9,744 nt of DNA, from the IMG/VR virus record IMGVR_UViG_3300026224_000017; one strand, written 5' to 3'. The position numbers and the translations under genes were made by a program. This stretch comes from a virus. Its lineage: Duplodnaviria; Heunggongvirae; Uroviricota; Caudoviricetes. The notes under the pieces are model-generated. The model was not told the DNA's origin. It saw only the letters and a list, made by a program, of their open reading frames with translations, and ran no database searches. Below are positions 2,721-9,744 of the stretch, piece by piece (position 1 is the stretch's first letter; the number at the start of each line of letters is the position of its first letter).

Positions 2721-2757
2721 ATTTATTTATCACTTGAATACATTATAAGGAGATATA

Positions 2758-3234
2758 ATGCGGTTCTATTTCAACAAAAAAGGTCTTTCTGGTATTTCTG
2801 TATCAAGCGGAAGGAGTAGTGGTGGCTGTGGAACATTAATTGGAGTTGTCTTTATACTTTATTTAATTGGCCATTTTTCATCACCTTCCGATGAAGATAT
2901 TAAAAATGAATCATCATCTTATAAGACAGCAGTCGTTAAAAGCGACAAAATAATTTCCGAAATCTGCGATCAGTTTAGCACTGATGATTCCGCAAAAATA
3001 TTTTTTAATTCAAATCTAAACAAACATTGGTATAAAACAAAAGTTAAAGTAAATTCACTATCAGATCAAAGATTATCTGCGATTGATTTCAAAAATCCAG
3101 AATTAAAGTATGAAATAAGAATGTCTGATTCAAGACCATTAAGAGTAGGGGATATTATTTCCGTTGAATTTGTACCTACTGAATTCAGTAAGTATTCATG
3201 CGAAATCAGTGGCACAATAGGTAAGTACAAGTAA
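2758..3234 (+). CDS. Hypothetical membrane-anchored protein (single N-terminal transmembrane helix, ~120-aa C-terminal domain), 158 aa
   Basis: Strong RBS AAGGAG 5 nt before the ATG. A basic N-terminus is followed by a hydrophobic helix (TLIGVVFILYLIGHF) and then a K/S/D-rich domain. The gene is very AT-rich (sampled stretches about 20-35 percent GC) and ends 4 nt before an intrinsic terminator. No recognisable family by eye. Confidence 0.6.
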   Translation: MRFYFNKKGLSGISVSSGRSSGGCGTLIGVVFILYLIGHFSSPSDEDIKNESSSYKTAVVKSDKIISEICDQFSTDDSAKIFFNSNLNKHWYKTKVKVNSLSDQRLSAIDFKNPELKYEIRMSDSRPLRVGDIISVEFVPTEFSKYSCEISGTIGKYK

Positions 3235-3238
3235 CCTC

Positions 3239-3272
3239 AAAAAAAACAGCCCGCTGAACGCGGGCTGTTTTT
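3239..3272. terminator. Bidirectional rho-independent terminator shared by convergent genes 2758-3234 and 3271-3660
   Basis: A-run 3239-3246, 8-bp GC-rich stem cagcccgc (3247-3254) / gcgggctg (3260-3267), 5-nt loop, T-run 3268-3272. The A-run/T-run flanks make it functional in both orientations. Confidence 0.75.
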
Positions 3273-3660
3273 AATATACGCCACGAATAAGATCTTGGGT
3301 AAAAACATCACATCCTTCGCTACCTAATTGCAGTCTTTTCTTAAAGTACTCAATAATACCGTCATTATGAACGCCATTTTTGGAAATTTTTAACCACGTA
3401 TTGCTCCATTCTATACTTTGGAGTTTTGTTAAAGCCGCTTTTTCATTTCCTTCACTAACCAAGCGACACGATTCTGATAGTTGATCAGTTACAATCATTT
3501 CATTTCTCATATGCTGAAGCAATTGTCGCTGTTCTTCGCTTAAAGTAACATCTTGATTAGTAATGAGTCTTTCTGATTTTTCAATTGGCGTACCAATCGC
3601 ACACCAAGAGACGAATAAAATTGTAAATAAAGGGAGTGTAATTTTTATACTGACCGACAT
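3271..3660 (-). CDS. Hypothetical secreted/periplasmic protein with N-terminal signal sequence and two cysteines in the mature part, 129 aa
   Basis: ATG at 3660 is preceded by GAGG with a 5-nt spacer; the GTG at 3666 suggested by the ORF track sits inside that Shine-Dalgarno. The N-terminus MSVSIKITLPLFTILFVSWCAIG has n, h and c regions of a Sec signal peptide. AT-rich (about 33 percent GC in a sample). The stop overlaps the terminator T-run. Confidence 0.6.
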   Translation of the reverse strand: MSVSIKITLPLFTILFVSWCAIGTPIEKSERLITNQDVTLSEEQRQLLQHMRNEMIVTDQLSESCRLVSEGNEKAALTKLQSIEWSNTWLKISKNGVHNDGIIEYFKKRLQLGSEGCDVFTQDLIRGVY

Positions 3661-3689
3661 AATCACCTCATTATCAAATGTTCATGCGG

Positions 3690-3717
3690 ATTTTATCAAC
3701 GGTTTCCCTCTATTCAA
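3690..3717 (-). promoter_or_regulatory. Candidate sigma70 promoter for gene 3271-3660
   Basis: On the minus strand: -35 TTGAAT (3717-3712), 16-bp spacer, -10 TAAAAT (3695-3690). Predicted start near 3683, about 23 nt upstream of the ATG. Found by eye only. Confidence 0.35.
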
Positions 3718-3724
3718 ATCAGAC

Positions 3725-3752
3725 TTTACATCCATGAGCTATTGAGTATGAT
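3725..3752 (+). promoter_or_regulatory. Candidate sigma70 promoter for the antirepressor-like gene, back to back with the minus-strand promoter
   Basis: -35 TTTACA (3725-3730), 16-bp spacer, -10 TATGAT (3747-3752). The two -35 elements are 8 bp apart, a typical divergent promoter layout. Found by eye only. Confidence 0.35.
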
Positions 3753-3979
3753 TATGCGCATGAGGCGTCGAAACCTCTTTCACGCGGCCTAGACCAACCC
3801 CGTCAGTGTTGGATTTTTTATGCCTACAATTCAGTGATGGCACAATGTGCGGTCACATCCCCGATCAATGTCGGGAGGGCGACGAATACAACACCCGAAA
3901 GGGAAATAAGTCCGCGGTTTCGTGAAGCCGTTTCGAACCTCCTGGCACCACAATTTCGAAAAAATTTCACGAGGTTTCT

Positions 3980-4537
3980 ATGACCAGCCAATTAATTCCC
4001 GTATTCAACGGCATTGTTTCAAACGAAACTACCCTTCTCTGCAACGCTCGCGATCTGCACACCTTTCTCGAAGTAGGTAAACGCTTTGCTACTTGGATCA
4101 CCGAGCGAATCGGCGAGTATGAATTCATAGAAAATCAGGACTACATAGCTATTTCCCAAAAACGGGAAATAGGTCACGGACGAGGGAAAAAGGACTACCA
4201 CCTCACCCTGGACACCGCCAAAGAACTGGCAATGGTCGAGCGCAACGAAAAAGGCCGCCAGATCCGCCGATACTTCATCGAGTGCGAGAAGAAGCTGCGC
4301 GAGGATACCACCAGCACACAATCCCCTCTGAATGTTGACATCATCATGCGCGTCAGAAACGGCTCGGTTACCCACATTGAGCACCACAAATCAGGCTCAG
4401 TTATAACCACAGAATGGGCAATTCACTTACTACGCAAAAGTGGATGGATTGTCATGCCACGCGATGAACTTCTTAACACGCCACTGGCCCAACTGATGCC
4501 CGAAAATTTGACTCAAACCGGAACCTGCGTCCGGTAA
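3980..4537 (+). CDS. Phage antirepressor-like protein (AntA/AntB-type N-terminal domain), 185 aa
   Basis: GAGG 5 nt before the ATG. The N-terminus (LIPVFNG ... ARDLHTFLEVGKRFATWITERIGEYEFIENQDY) and central segment (LTLDTAKELAMVERNEKGRQIRRYFIECEKKL) match the pattern I associate with AntA/AntB antirepressor proteins. The C-terminal ~70 aa are not recognisable. Confidence 0.6.
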   Translation: MTSQLIPVFNGIVSNETTLLCNARDLHTFLEVGKRFATWITERIGEYEFIENQDYIAISQKREIGHGRGKKDYHLTLDTAKELAMVERNEKGRQIRRYFIECEKKLREDTTSTQSPLNVDIIMRVRNGSVTHIEHHKSGSVITTEWAIHLLRKSGWIVMPRDELLNTPLAQLMPENLTQTGTCVR

Positions 4538-4860
4538 CTGGTCCCATTAAAAAACACAACATCGATGTTATAGGTGGGGTTCTCTGCCCCATCTACCTTT
4601 GAAATTGCCAGCGATGCAAAATACCCGGCAAACTGTTGCTGAACCATGTTCACATAGTAGTCCGGGTAAATTTGCTGCACGATGCACTGCTGCGCTGGAA
4701 TGCCGTAATTCGCGTAAAACGGCGACTCCCCCAACCCCAGCTTTAACGTCTGAATGAGCGTCGTCAGCCAGCCGTAGGAGAAATCACCGCTGGCGTCAGA
4801 TTCTACAGCAACCCATTTTTTGTTGCCGTTCGCGTCGGTGACGCGGCCCCATGTTCTCAT
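4513..4860 (-). CDS. Baseplate wedge protein, gp25 / P2 gpW-like, 115 aa
   Basis: Contains GESPFYANYG, which fits the G-x-x-P-F-x-x-x-[FY]-G core of gp25/W proteins (compare T4 gp25 GSRPFDPEFG). Size matches P2 gpW (115 aa). It lies between the spike and J genes. Its ATG is 3 nt after the stop of the preceding small ORF. Confidence 0.5.
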   Translation of the reverse strand: MRTWGRVTDANGNKKWVAVESDASGDFSYGWLTTLIQTLKLGLGESPFYANYGIPAQQCIVQQIYPDYYVNMVQQQFAGYFASLAISKVDGAENPTYNIDVVFFNGTSYRTQVPV

Positions 4861-4863
4861 GCG

Positions 4864-5028
4864 TCAACCTTTCAAGTAAATTAGGGTACCGGTAGCCAGA
4901 GCGGTACAAATGATCCACGCTACTGGAGTCAGAATATGCCGAATACCCTGACATACTGCGATTATTCTCGCAGCCTTATCAGCTCCTTGTGGGGTTGTCT
5001 CAGCCTTAAGAATCAGTTCGCTATCCAT
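4864..5028 (-). CDS. Hypothetical small protein with C-terminal transmembrane helix, 54 aa
   Basis: Translation verified by hand: MDSELILKAETTPQGADKAARIIAVCQGIRHILTPVAWIICTALATGTLIYLKG. Its ATG overlaps the stop of the upstream small ORF (ATGGATAG), and its TGA is 3 nt before the W-like ATG. Not in the ORF track, presumably because it is under the length cutoff. Confidence 0.35.
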   Translation of the reverse strand: MDSELILKAETTPQGADKAARIIAVCQGIRHILTPVAWIICTALATGTLIYLKG

Positions 5029-5188
5029 TTAGAACCTTTATGATCTCTGCGATTCCCGGAAGCGATTTAGCAACTGCAAACCCTCCGATAACTATAAGAA
5101 CTGCATAAAACATTCTTCTCAGAACCGGACTTCTTTCGAGCAATTTTAGAGCTTCCACAATCCAGTCTCCTCCGCTAAAATTAATCAC
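5021..5188 (-). CDS. Hypothetical small membrane peptide (single hydrophobic helix), 55 aa from GTG or 30 aa from the internal ATG
   Basis: GTG at 5188 is preceded by GGAGG (5199-5195) with a 6-nt spacer. Translation: VINFSGGDWIVEALKLLERSPVLRRMFYAVLIVIGGFAVAKSLPGIAEIIKVLNG. It lies downstream of the hairpin at 5244-5275 and is coupled to the next ORF. Confidence 0.35.
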   Translation of the reverse strand: MINFSGGDWIVEALKLLERSPVLRRMFYAVLIVIGGFAVAKSLPGIAEIIKVLNG

Positions 5189-5243
5189 GGAAGACCTCCA
5201 AACATACGTAATTATCCCTTGCCTTATTCAAGGTCAGAAACAG

Positions 5244-5275
5244 AAAGCCCCGACTGTTTGCCCAGTCGGGGCTTT
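5244..5275. terminator. Strong GC-rich stem-loop (terminator- or attenuator-like) just downstream of the spike gene
   Basis: 13-bp perfect inverted repeat aaagccccgactg (5244-5256) / cagtcggggcttt (5263-5275) with a 6-nt loop. Flanking sequence is moderately T-rich on both strands. It sits about 38 nt after the stop of the 5314-6027 gene. Confidence 0.5.
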
Positions 5276-5313
5276 CGCTTTATGGATAGAATTTAAAGTG
5301 AAATGAACCGGTA

Positions 5314-6027
5314 TTAACCCGGATTTGGTTTCTTTGACGTGATCGTGCTGTTGCCGCTTTGAACCCCAGTCACATCGTGGCTGTGACCGCTGGCGCTGAC
5401 ACCTTTTATCATCGCGTCGTTTTGCACAGTAAGCGGGCCAATCAGCGAAGCGGTTGTATCCTTCATCTGGGCTTTGTCCTGGACGATCGGTCCGTTGAGG
5501 TGAATTTTCCCGTTCAGGAAAATATCTTCGGCCTCGAGGTAAACAGCTTTCGACTTTTGCCTGATTTCTTCCGGTGCCACCGTTACCGAGCTACTGCCGT
5601 CCTCTGTTTTGAGGATCGCGCCATCCGGACCGTACAAAACGATCTTTTGCGGATCTTCGTCGGACCAGTCCTTGTTTGCCAGTGGCACGAAAAACAGTGG
5701 AGTGAGCGACATCGAGTAAGAGAGCGTCGCCATACCGGTTCCCAATCCGGACACACCGCGCAGGGATACATCAGCGGCAATTGTTACTCCTCGATCGCCC
5801 GGCTGTATCGGGTAACGAATATACGGGAATGTGGCGACAGGGATTGTTATCTGCGGAAAGTTGATCCCCTCCGGCAGCATATCAAACTGAACTGTCACTA
5901 TCTGCCCGCTGACACCGACAACATGGCAGGGCAATTCACGACCTTTAAGCTCGGCTTGCTGGTTACCAGAACTGGTCATCATCTCCGACAGCGTTCGGAG
6001 AAACGGTAATTTTTGAGCGTTTGACAT
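5314..6027 (-). CDS. Baseplate spike protein, P2 gpV / Mu gp45-like, 237 aa
   Basis: Size and position match. The C-terminal region has a His-containing apex-like motif (GHSHDVTGVQSG) and a Gly/Ser/Thr-rich beta-type sequence, as in gpV-type spikes. Its start overlaps the stop of the upstream hub-position gene. Confidence 0.6.
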   Translation of the reverse strand: MSNAQKLPFLRTLSEMMTSSGNQQAELKGRELPCHVVGVSGQIVTVQFDMLPEGINFPQITIPVATFPYIRYPIQPGDRGVTIAADVSLRGVSGLGTGMATLSYSMSLTPLFFVPLANKDWSDEDPQKIVLYGPDGAILKTEDGSSSVTVAPEEIRQKSKAVYLEAEDIFLNGKIHLNGPIVQDKAQMKDTTASLIGPLTVQNDAMIKGVSASGHSHDVTGVQSGNSTITSKKPNPG

Positions 6028-7034
6028 TACACCCTCGCCCAGTTCTCAGCATATGCCTCAAATACCGTCACCCAGGCATCGCCATCGGCTGTCAGATACG
6101 AACCAATGTGTCTGACCGATTTCACAAGAAATTTCCCGGTGAACGTGGTCGAATTTTTTGCGATAACGCTGGGTGCCGTTGTATTAGCCATCACAATCGA
6201 CGCAGCACCTGAATATAGCCCCTCCGGCAGTTTAACCACATCACCACATCTGATATCGCCCCTCATAGGGCATTTGAAGCTGACGGTAAACGGCGCTATC
6301 CATGTCGGCTGCCCGACCAGTTCATGGGCATGAATTGTTTTTGGCTCACCCCACTTTGCCGATGCGTTATCGTAGATTCGTATTCTGTCGGAAAGAATAC
6401 TGATGGCGATTCCGCTGTATTTCTCATCGCGCATCATTGCAATTGAAGCACTACGGAGGACCATAGCCAGCGAACCAATATCTTCGTAGGTTCCATTCCA
6501 CGGTTCCGGCAAAACGAGGCTGTCGCTGACAGTACAATCGATCAACTTATTCGGAAATGCCTTTTGCAACGCACGGGAGATTACATCACCAACCTTTTCC
6601 CCTTTAAGCCCCTCCCCCTCGATAGAGAACGGTTTACCATCATCTGTTTTGCGTACGGTTGGATTTATTACCAGGTTTAAGGTCTGGTTCGTGCCGATCC
6701 AGTTGGCATAGGCCAGATAAATTTCGCCATAAATAACCTCACCCTGTTGCTGTGGATTTGCCAAAGGCAATCCCTCAACAAAGCCCGCTTTCATACGGAC
6801 CAGACACCCCTGCAAACTCACGCTTTGCTTCAGCATGTCGATAGGCAAACCGTATATTGTGAGCATCGTTCCTGAATTCACTACATCAAGACCCGCTACC
6901 TCCACATCAAATTCAACATGTAGCCCACACCCGGGGGTTTTACTGGTATCAAAAGGCCCGATAGGTTTACCGTTGCAATCCACTGGCGGCTTGCCTGTTT
7001 TAGGATTGATGATTTCCAGTCGGTAATAGCGCAT
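6027..7034 (-). CDS. Tail protein in the baseplate hub position (gpD-like by gene order), 335 aa
   Basis: Translationally coupled to both neighbours (TAATG overlap at 7034, 1-nt overlap at 6027). It sits immediately upstream of the spike gene, as hub proteins do. The assignment is positional; I cannot confirm family membership by eye. Confidence 0.45.
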   Translation of the reverse strand: MRYYRLEIINPKTGKPPVDCNGKPIGPFDTSKTPGCGLHVEFDVEVAGLDVVNSGTMLTIYGLPIDMLKQSVSLQGCLVRMKAGFVEGLPLANPQQQGEVIYGEIYLAYANWIGTNQTLNLVINPTVRKTDDGKPFSIEGEGLKGEKVGDVISRALQKAFPNKLIDCTVSDSLVLPEPWNGTYEDIGSLAMVLRSASIAMMRDEKYSGIAISILSDRIRIYDNASAKWGEPKTIHAHELVGQPTWIAPFTVSFKCPMRGDIRCGDVVKLPEGLYSGAASIVMANTTAPSVIAKNSTTFTGKFLVKSVRHIGSYLTADGDAWVTVFEAYAENWARV

Positions 7035-7300
7035 TACGAAACCTCAAACTGATTAGAACTTTCACGAAAAACGAGTTTCCCCGGCGAGCAAGGCAGCGCC
7101 AGATTGATGTCGTAATTGTCAGGTGACGCGATCAACGGTGTGTACACAATCACGTCGCCAGAACTGTCTTTCAGTTCCAGATAGTAACGATTTGCATACA
7201 GATTAAACGGAACGCGGGCGAATGTTTCATATTTTCCGATTCTGGCCGTGAACTGAAACGGACCTCGCCCGTCCGGTTTGAAAGGAATTAACGTTGTCAT
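7034..7300 (-). CDS. Small tail protein (gpX-like position), 88 aa
   Basis: ATGA overlap with the upstream gene and TAATG overlap with the downstream gene. Small protein between tape-measure-proximal and hub genes, as in P2-type tails. No clear LysM motif seen. Confidence 0.4.
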   Translation of the reverse strand: MTTLIPFKPDGRGPFQFTARIGKYETFARVPFNLYANRYYLELKDSSGDVIVYTPLIASPDNYDINLALPCSPGKLVFRESSNQFEVS

Positions 7301-9441: not shown

Positions 9442-9666
9442 ATATCCGTACCCGAAAGCACCGACCGAACCAAGCGCCGCAATTTTGCTCCCCCAGGATA
9501 CAGTCGTTTTAAACAGCGTTTTCAGTCGTGAATTGGTCGTTTTAAGCGTTGAATTGATCTGCTTGTAAGTTTTCAGCGTCCCCTGAGCGTTTTTACCCAG
9601 ACTACTGAGATACTTATCAAATGAACCGCCCCGGGTTTCCTGGAGAGTGTTTTATCTGTGAACTCA

Positions 9667-9744
9667 GGCTGCCAGATCAGTATTTCCGATGGAAGCATAA
9701 TAAGCTTTTTCTGCTTCTGCCGGAGGAATATGGCCCAGCCTTTC
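9667..9744 (-). CDS. C-terminal end of an upstream tail-module gene (partial; start lies beyond the right edge)
   Basis: Open frame from the window edge ending ...AEKAYYASIGNTDLAA at TGA (9666-9664), followed in the same frame by a second stop TAA (9654-9652). Identity unknown; tape measure N-part or tail chaperone are the candidates. Confidence 0.35.

Follow-up and report, generated by a model that had tools for sequence, protein, structure and literature searches.

Two small genes for predicted membrane peptides in a Rac-type prophage: shuffling accessory modules behind a conserved 5′ control block

The stretch of DNA analysed here (the window; 9,744 nucleotides of IMG/VR virus record IMGVR_UViG_3300026224_000017, Caudoviricetes) is the tail/baseplate part of a Rac-type lambdoid Escherichia coli prophage coding on the minus strand. 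Two small open reading frames, ORF1 and ORF2, which we assign to peptide families A and B, lie between its spike gene and a 115-amino-acid (aa) baseplate gene. Both are shown by their substitution patterns to be genuine coding genes under purifying selection, and they are two independent mobile accessory modules that move between the gene junctions of temperate phages. ORF1 has a conserved 5′ block, and the function that we tentatively favour for the products is that of guarded membrane-active effectors.

Coding evidence and predicted build of ORF1 and ORF2

Substitutions between homologues are concentrated at third codon positions in both genes. Between the window and the homologous locus L015 (homologous loci are given L numbers), ORF2 carries 27 synonymous and 6 non-synonymous differences, corresponding to a ratio of non-synonymous to synonymous rates (dN/dS) of ~0.03, and between the window and L006, ORF1 carries 24 synonymous and 11 non-synonymous differences (dN/dS ~0.08). 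Over the pairs with an estimable dS and more than ~10 substitutions, dN/dS was 0.03–0.07 for ORF2 and 0.08–0.45 for ORF1 (0.08–0.25 in the pairs that include the window copy), with synonymous sites saturated in both genes. The reading frames are conserved between homologues in this synonymous-site analysis, and the third-position bias and low dN/dS bear out an earlier reading of the window made from its letters (the sequence-only reading), in which the tight in-frame chaining of the two ORFs had seemed unlikely to be accidental. Random or decaying ORFs in a recombination-prone spacer would fit the fact that the NCBI pipeline leaves the region uncalled in most complete genomes, the genes being mostly unannotated in RefSeq; against them stand the dN/dS well below 1 at saturated synonymous sites, the protein motifs kept across genera, and ribosome-binding sites and chained starts that are retained in every context, so that this explanation has next to no probability left. 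Synonymous variation in ORF2 is even along the whole gene, and an ORF in an alternative frame inside it (4796–4954) was judged a by-product, given this uniformity and its lack of a Shine-Dalgarno (SD) sequence. The window and L015 differ at 2 bases in ORF1 and at 33 bases in ORF2, which indicates a recombination boundary between the two genes and marks each ORF as a separate module.

Each ORF contains one 19-residue hydrophobic window near its C-terminus (Kyte-Doolittle mean ~1.9), and 4–8 residues follow the membrane helix. The AlphaFold2 models show a short helix at the N-terminus and then a single long one, at residues 8–19 and 21–54 in ORF1 (pLDDT 84) and at residues 3–9 and 13–53 in ORF2 (pLDDT 70), in agreement with the single hydrophobic helix that had been read in each. 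Because basic residues precede the hydrophobic segment (RR in ORF1 and RGIRH in ORF2), the likeliest topology is N-in and tail-anchored, with the polar or amphipathic N-terminal part in the cytoplasm. The G+C content of ORF1 (0.41) and ORF2 (0.47) is lower than that of the neighbouring spike (0.525) and 115-aa (0.517) genes.

The remaining anatomy of the sequence-only reading was recovered as described, namely the 55-aa ORF1 with its GGAGG ribosome-binding site, the 54-aa ORF2, and a tight chain in which the ORF1 stop and ORF2 start overlap in ATGGATAG and the ORF2 TGA is separated by 3 nucleotides (nt) from the ATG of the 115-aa gene (Table 1). An SD sequence equivalent to that of ORF1 was present in all homologues. 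Comparable stop/start overlaps occur in other arrays (ATGCATAA in L003, ATGA in L009 and ATGGTGGTGA in L007), and the junction to the 115-aa gene is equally tight where other peptides precede it (TGA plus 7 nt for family E, and an ATGA overlap for the variant A3). The last gene of the cassette provides the ribosome-binding region of the next structural gene.

Unrelated peptide families were also observed to share a C-terminal ...(R/K)WW, which is encoded by (CGN/AAA)TGGTGGTGA and has the ATG of the next gene or the SD-like GGTGGTGA inside it. Such ends were found at L001 7019–7030, L009 5222–5233 and L007 5758–5769, and in several members of families A and D. This coding string may serve as a reusable junction for chaining modules.

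Peptide families and their distribution

Homologues of ORF1 (family A) formed 20 clusters in E. coli and Salmonella, and a profile of distant members extended the family to 65 clusters, with members in Cronobacter, Sodalis, Yersinia, Klebsiella, Acinetobacter and metagenomes; homologues of ORF2 (family B) formed 14 clusters. An exhaustive hidden Markov model search with family A over 1.84 billion representatives returned 20 proteins, 19 of them 36–88 aa long, and no tie to any larger family. Families A and B are not detectably related to each other (profile–profile probability 1.5%). Three more families (C, D and E) consist of unrelated peptides, 28–65 aa long, that have the same build, a polar N-terminus followed by a C-terminal membrane helix.

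ORF1, ORF2 and the related peptides had no match in PHROGs, Pfam, NCBIfam or PADLOC, even at E = 1, and a tblastn search of ORF1 and ORF2 against 50,697 phage records gave no match either. In a deposited phage genome only family E is represented, by rac58 of Rac-SA53. The source names of ten related peptides are all generic (hypothetical or uncharacterised, putative bacteriophage, membrane or transmembrane protein, lipoprotein), and full-text literature searches, including those on Rac-SA53 and on small prophage membrane proteins, returned nothing on these genes. DNA of the ORF1/ORF2 pair (families A and B) was nevertheless present in 79 out of 5,426 complete E. coli genomes, 28 of which had the full pair. 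The exact ORF1 and ORF2 sequences each occurred in ~200 contigs, and some members of families C and E occurred in at least ~1,000 contigs apiece. The host prophages are those of pig enterotoxigenic and Shiga-toxin-producing E. coli, where the modules lie beside toxin, lysis and tail genes.

Shuffling of modules between gene junctions

Among prophages whose spike and 115-aa genes are 94–99% identical to those of the window, the junction between these two genes had at least ten different contents, made up of varying arrays of the five unrelated mini-protein families (A–E). Arrays bearing family A were A+B, A+B with a Rha-type gene, A+B+E2+E, and A with a truncated B; two A variants were also found, one of which has a stop overlapping the ATG of the next gene. 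Where A is absent, the junction held a long B alone, B+E2+E, E alone (rac58, Rac-SA53), or E with a Rha-type gene. Prophages that are otherwise 94–99% identical can therefore carry non-homologous peptides at this one position. In the more distant relative L007, the spike and 115-aa genes abut with nothing between them, and D-, E- and A-type peptides are found between the tail tube and chaperone genes instead. The comparison of related prophages for presence or absence, which the sequence-only reading had proposed, thus revealed modules that are accessory, variable at the junction and missing from it in L007.

The position between the spike and baseplate genes and the translational coupling to the 115-aa gene would suit baseplate or tail assembly factors needed for the virion, one of the roles originally considered. 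The free variation of the junction content, with non-homologous peptides swapped in between nearly identical prophages, rules out an essential role in tail assembly; together with the empty junction of L007 and the occurrence of the same modules in lysis cassettes, at prophage ends and in an immunity region, it leaves assembly factors a very improbable explanation.

Three kinds of lysis cassette (lysozyme-[A,C]-Rz, lysozyme-[A,D]-Rz, and M15 peptidase-[C,B,D]-small lipoprotein) have modules of families A, B and C immediately behind the endolysin gene. Modules were also found after a lambda-type tail-tip gene at a prophage end and after a tail-fibre assembly gene. In the GC-rich metagenomic siphovirus L036, a family A gene and a family D gene are paired between those for the tail chaperone and the tape measure, and one distant metagenomic phage has modules in its immunity region, by a leftward early promoter, a methyltransferase gene and a CI-like repressor gene.

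The mobility of this cassette recalls the morons of Juhala and Hendrix, which are likewise extra DNA at gene junctions, with a G+C content below that of the neighbours and horizontal spread among phages. It differs in that the cassette is not a promoter–gene–terminator unit: the sole terminator-like element lies 5′ of the genes, and ORF2 runs into the next gene.

Several of these locations showed further features. In E. coli LH50-c (L003 4860–5420), the A+C pair lies between an intact lysozyme gene and Rz and is bordered by a 6-codon remnant of the Rz start and a duplicated 75-nt 3′ end of the lysozyme gene, and the stop codon of the C peptide comes from the lysozyme remnant; this arrangement looks like a footprint of cassette capture. 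The M15-endolysin cassettes with C/B/D arrays (L009 5235–5417 and equivalents in L045–L055) close with a conserved 60-aa lipoprotein, which has the lipobox LVGC and three Cys in its 30-aa mature part, and no Rz/Rz1-like gene is found in them before the HNH and terminase genes. This lipoprotein may provide a non-canonical outer-membrane disruption function. At the prophage end in L056, the B+A3 array adjoins a gene (4927–7092, minus strand) for a 643-aa protein that combines an Ala/Glu/Lys repeat with a C-terminal region like that of colicins or pyocins, next to which a 90-aa ORF is a candidate immunity protein. In the lysis cassette of the prophage of strain P13-6 (L060 30658–30792, minus strand), a 44-aa hydrophobic ORF is located between Rz and an antirepressor-like gene, a further case of a small membrane peptide where endolysin and Rz genes meet.

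A conserved 5′ control block at ORF1

The comparison covered sixteen distinct family A 5′ ends (15 of them in a multiple alignment), taken from E. coli, Salmonella, Sodalis, Yersinia and two GC-rich metagenomic phages. The 125-bp spacer with a strong hairpin that had been described upstream of ORF1 is present, and the hairpin (14-bp stem with 9 G-C pairs, 6-nt loop, tail TGTTTCTGAC) is scored as an intrinsic terminator. The RNA of a 141-nt spacer segment folds at −47.6 kcal/mol (z = −4.8 versus shuffles). Across family A, the hairpin (AAAGCCCCG...CGGGGCTTT) retains 14 consensus pairs, 6 of them with compensatory changes, and lies 40–75 nt before the start codon. In either orientation it is followed by a U-rich tail (sense, CUGUUUC; antisense, UUUCGCUUUAU). 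The homologous hairpins of L003, L007 and L015 are scored as terminators in both orientations, that of L065 in the antisense orientation only. In L006 and L061 the hairpin is present besides the upstream gene's own terminator, which indicates that it is part of the module. A predicted leader stem just 5′ of the ribosome-binding site covaries in the GC-rich relatives (CCTCA..TGAGG in L065 and CCTC..GAGG in L036).

The promoter scan detected a promoter-like site on the plus strand, antisense to ORF1 and inside its codons 3–12, which recurs at the same position in L015, L003, L036, L056 and L065 and falls under the scan threshold in L005, L007 and L029. Its consensus, T[TC]CAC[AG]-16-TAA[AT]AT, is matched at no fewer than 9 of 12 positions in 13 of the 16 distinct copies, with 10 of 12 in L018, L061 and L065. 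This site coincides with a block of suppressed synonymous change: codons 3–12 (5153–5182) vary synonymously in 16 of 263 same-residue pairs, versus ~55% in codons 13–55. Codon choice spares the −10 element, as Asn3 is always AAT and Phe4 always TTT in the aligned copies having these residues, and the fifth codon always begins with A, Ser being AGY and never TCN. From this site, a candidate antisense RNA of ~95 nt would start on the ORF1 start codon, be complementary to the SD sequence and end at the hairpin.

The same codons contain an internal GGAG and a GTG (Val11), both invariant in all 15 aligned copies, including the GC-rich relatives in which the amino acids differ; Gly6 is GGA in 15 of the 15 copies, GC-rich genomes included. 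Gene callers sometimes begin family A proteins at this internal GTG (P0009, P0019 and P0038). The element looks like a ribosome-binding site and start for a 45-aa isoform of ORF1. The constraint on codons 3–12 is accounted for in part by each of two overlapping elements, the candidate antisense promoter and the candidate internal start; a recombination linker is a third possibility. The block is a compact and directly testable case of overlapping codes, with a protein motif, an antisense promoter and an internal start within the same 30 bases.

Neither a block of suppressed synonymous change nor an antisense signal was found in ORF2 or family B. When families C, E and the long B lead an array, they have an N-terminal extension of 12–16 codons followed by an internal SD sequence and start. 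In family C, an antisense promoter-like site is present as well, in the corresponding place, and is kept between the L009 copy and the 35%-identical L013 copy.

At the gathering threshold, no Rfam family matched this region. Below it, on the correct strand, sar (24 bits vs 43) and ohsC (22.8 vs 50) gave weak, hairpin-driven matches. The arrangement resembles that of P22 sar RNA and ant, in that a candidate short antisense RNA would run from a promoter in the 5′ end of its target, over the ribosome-binding site, to a two-way terminator-like hairpin; it differs in that the Rfam match to sar is below threshold and probably due to the hairpin, and in that the target is a membrane mini-protein rather than an antirepressor.

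Expression and possible functions

No promoter-like site was found on the sense strand in the window at 4400–5500, nor at eight homologous loci (L001, L003, L005, L007, L009, L015, L036 and L065). A hand search of the 56-nt leader gave CTGACC-15-GATAAT, which was rejected as a sense promoter for its poor spacer and its absence from leaders of the Rac-SA53 type. In the latter, the hairpin tail and the start codon are only ~30 nt apart, too close for a promoter to fit between them. The cassette lies on the late-operon strand in every lambdoid context, and Rac-SA53, the closest deposited phage, is lambdoid and encodes a Q late antiterminator. Given the missing sense promoter, the terminator-like hairpin, the late-strand orientation and the tight coupling to the next gene, and drawing on established knowledge of lambdoid late transcription, we infer that sense RNA would come solely from the late operon, with Q-modified RNA polymerase reading through the hairpin. 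In the lysogen, the genes would be silenced by the hairpin together with the ~95-nt cis-antisense RNA over the ORF1 ribosome-binding site. Once the late operon is transcribed, the two starts would yield the 55-aa and 45-aa forms of ORF1, and the peptides would insert in the inner membrane as holin-, antiholin- or type I toxin-like effectors, either permeabilising or depolarising the membrane or tuning the timing of lysis.

The reading that we favour, short of an even chance as it is, takes ORF1 and ORF2 for tightly guarded membrane-active effectors that resemble holins, antiholins or type I toxins. It is favoured because of the apparent double guard, the inferred late-operon expression and the frequent position after endolysins; a terminator combined with an antisense guard would fit a product that does damage when made at the wrong time. 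Like the dual-start holin/antiholin genes (lambda S107/S105 and phage 21 S), ORF1 encodes a small membrane protein with two in-frame candidate starts, each with an SD sequence, and relatives of ORF1 and ORF2 directly follow endolysin genes.

A number of observations weigh against membrane-active effectors. In sequence the peptides resemble none of the holin or type I toxin families in Pfam, PHROG, NCBIfam or PADLOC, and membership of the known families that had come into question (holin, Phage_holin included, Hok/Ldr/Ibs/TisB or YebO) is not supported by sequence. Their build is the reverse of the typical holin architecture, with one C-terminal membrane helix and no charged C-terminal tail or domain, and the two candidate ORF1 starts are spaced by 10 codons. 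A full lysis set (holin, endolysin and Rz/Rz1) is already encoded by the closely related P13-6 prophage, and in the window the genes are in the baseplate cluster, outside a lysis cassette. The copies in L065 and L066 are in an immunity region, by a methyltransferase gene and a CI-like repressor gene, which is a non-late context. Finally, the evidence for the antisense promoter and for the second start consists of consensus matches and synonymous-site conservation, and these two elements overlap, so that each may partly account for the signal of the other. ORF1 and ORF2 were separately considered as a spanin substitute, which was rejected since they have neither a lipobox nor a long periplasmic segment and the P13-6 prophage has Rz/Rz1.

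The main rival is superinfection exclusion like that of HK97 gp15, according to which the peptides would be small, harmless inner-membrane proteins that prevent the tails of arriving phages from passing DNA through that membrane. HK97 gp15 is a moron between the chaperone and tape measure genes of the tail operon and blocks DNA entry (PMC3594210); with this precedent, the sequence-only reading went too far in calling small membrane peptides inside a structural operon unusual. ORF1 and ORF2 are similarly small single-pass inner-membrane proteins by prediction, inserted as accessory genes in a tail operon and missing from related phages. The A plus D pair of L036 occupies exactly the chaperone/tape measure slot of gp15, other copies stand beside spike, tape measure, tail-tip and tail-fibre genes, the family in L065 is in an immunity region, a frequent site of exclusion genes, and the fast shuffling of unrelated families fits an arms race. 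However, gp15 is expressed from the prophage as a unit with a promoter and a terminator of its own, whereas ORF1 and ORF2 have no sense promoter and a terminator directly upstream, so that the expression from a repressed prophage that exclusion needs is not expected. Moreover, a terminator plus antisense guard is hard to reconcile with a harmless protective protein, no similarity to YebO/gp15 or to other exclusion families was found in Pfam, PHROG, NCBIfam or PADLOC, and the genes are chained to the next structural gene in shuffling arrays of unrelated peptides. Exclusion is regarded as unlikely.

A canonical type I toxin–antitoxin system, in which a membrane toxin held by a constitutive cis-antisense RNA would serve prophage maintenance or abortive infection and not the phage lytic cycle, is a second rival; a layout of type I had been raised in the sequence-only reading. 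That layout has gained in plausibility from the plus-strand promoter-like site, its conservation, its coincidence with the block of suppressed synonymous change and its direction towards a hairpin with U-rich tails on both strands, and the accompanying statement that there was no convincing plus-strand promoter is corrected by the promoter-like site inside ORF1. As in the SymE/SymR-like geometry and the Hok/Sok, Ldr/Rdl and ShoB/OhsC toxin types, the peptides are hydrophobic, shorter than 60 aa (each with one membrane helix) and, as such toxins often are, prophage-borne. The candidate antisense RNA would begin at the toxin start codon, which is the SymR/symE geometry, cover the ribosome-binding site and end at a hairpin that is terminator-like on both strands, and the sub-threshold Rfam matches (sar and ohsC) are to antisense RNAs on the correct strand. 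Rac-type phages carry systems of this kind, hok/mok being annotated in Rac-SA53. On the other hand, the toxin would be without a promoter of its own, inside an operon and translationally coupled to its neighbours, among them an essential baseplate gene; later mini-proteins in the arrays are without their own antisense signals (family B has none), no Pfam toxin or Rfam antitoxin family matches at threshold, and the promoter-like site is below the scan threshold in L005, L007 and L029. We consider such a system improbable.

Genomic setting

In minus-strand order, the window encodes a tape measure protein with a transglycosylase domain, 222-aa and 88-aa proteins, a hub (335 aa) and the spike (237 aa), followed by ORF1 and ORF2, the 115-aa baseplate gene, a mixed-strand island with an antirepressor gene, and a baseplate J-like gene. 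The region 4400–6100 is 99.6% identical over 1,701 bases to prophages of pig isolates, e.g. the O141:H4 strain P13-6. Relatives of the spike are annotated bppV or 'phage baseplate protein', and the spike itself gave weak sub-threshold matches to P2 V and the Apex motif. The downstream gene had been called W-like. This name goes by its position; a match to the Pfam GPW/gp25 family or to a PDB sequence was not found, and the gene matches only PHROG 7986, a family without an assigned function. Its identity to the L007 gene lying immediately next to the L007 spike gene is 60%.

Table 1 Features at the insertion site of ORF1 and ORF2 (window coordinates)
Feature	Position	Strand	Description
Spike / baseplate V-like gene, 237 aa	5314..6027	-	Upstream edge of insertion site
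Spacer between spike and ORF1, 125 bp	5189..5313	-	Sequence
Module hairpin	5233..5287 (stem 5243-5276)	.	Sense tail CUGUUUCUGAC, antisense tail UUUCGCUUUAU
Leader stem CCTTG-N7-CAAGG	5217..5233	-	Predicted; just 5′ of ribosome-binding site
ORF1 Shine-Dalgarno GGAGG	5195..5199	-	6 nt upstream of GTG
ORF1, family A, 55 aa, GTG start	5021..5188	-	Motif NFSGGDWIVEALKL.E.SPVLRRMFY, then membrane helix
Antisense promoter-like site TCCACA-16-TAAAAT	5154..5181	+	Promoter scan; inside ORF1 codons 3-12
Internal GGAGGAG (5167-5173), 8 nt, GTG Val11 (5156-5158)	5156..5173	-	Candidate second start, 45-aa isoform
ORF1 stop / ORF2 start overlap ATGGATAG	5021..5028	-	Sequence
ORF2, family B, 54 aa, ATG start	4864..5028	-	Core KAETTPQGADKAA.IIAVCRGIRHILTPVAWIICTAL
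ORF2 TGA (4864-4866), 3 nt (CGC), ATG of 115-aa gene (4858-4860)	4858..4866	-	Sequence
115-aa baseplate gene	4513..4860	-	PHROG 7986 match; downstream edge of insertion site

Other parts of the window showed additional features. At 9442–9744 (minus strand), the tape measure frame runs on upstream of the listed ATG (9441) and matches the P13-6 protein there; further upstream, the window has in-frame stops where the P13-6 frame is open, and the N-terminal part of the gene therefore differs from that of the closest genome. A second accessory island (2721–4512) lies between the 115-aa baseplate gene and the J-like gene and contains the plus-strand antirepressor gene, a 131-aa ORF with a hydrophobic N-terminus (3271–3666, minus strand) and a 158-aa ORF with a membrane helix (2758–3234, plus strand). 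These two ORFs have a very low G+C content (0.35 and 0.32) and no family matches. Rfam sRNA-Xcc1 (RF02221) is matched on the plus strand at 3870–3954 with 69.7 bits against a gathering threshold of 53, immediately upstream of the antirepressor gene (3980–4537), which is convergent with the 115-aa gene and shares 25 nt with its 3′ end (4513–4537). No terminator was found on the plus strand from the antirepressor gene to the hairpin at 5243–5276, so that any transcript reading through from this gene would run antisense to the 115-aa gene, ORF2 and ORF1.

Implications for temperate phages

That phages carry small membrane proteins as accessory genes, and that toxic peptides can be controlled by antisense RNAs, is already known. 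What appears to be undescribed are these peptide families themselves, their promoter-less shuffling arrays behind a conserved hairpin and leader, and the overlapping codes in the first twelve codons. On a broader and more doubtful view, these genes might represent an undescribed and widespread class of cargo, namely promoter-less modules of tail-anchored mini-proteins whose arrays shuffle between the operon junctions of temperate phages of Gammaproteobacteria. Each array would be led by a four-part control unit (two-way hairpin terminator, leader stem, cis-antisense RNA and dual start) and would act as a guarded membrane switch, be it a lysis clock, an abortive kill switch or a late superinfection block.

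The genes are common in prophages of pathogenic E. coli and yet largely unannotated in RefSeq, and their value lies in offering a well-defined system that can be tested. If they are exclusion factors, they would explain part of the strain-to-strain differences in phage resistance; if they are guarded membrane effectors, as we favour, they would add a layer to lysis timing or cell killing in temperate phages.

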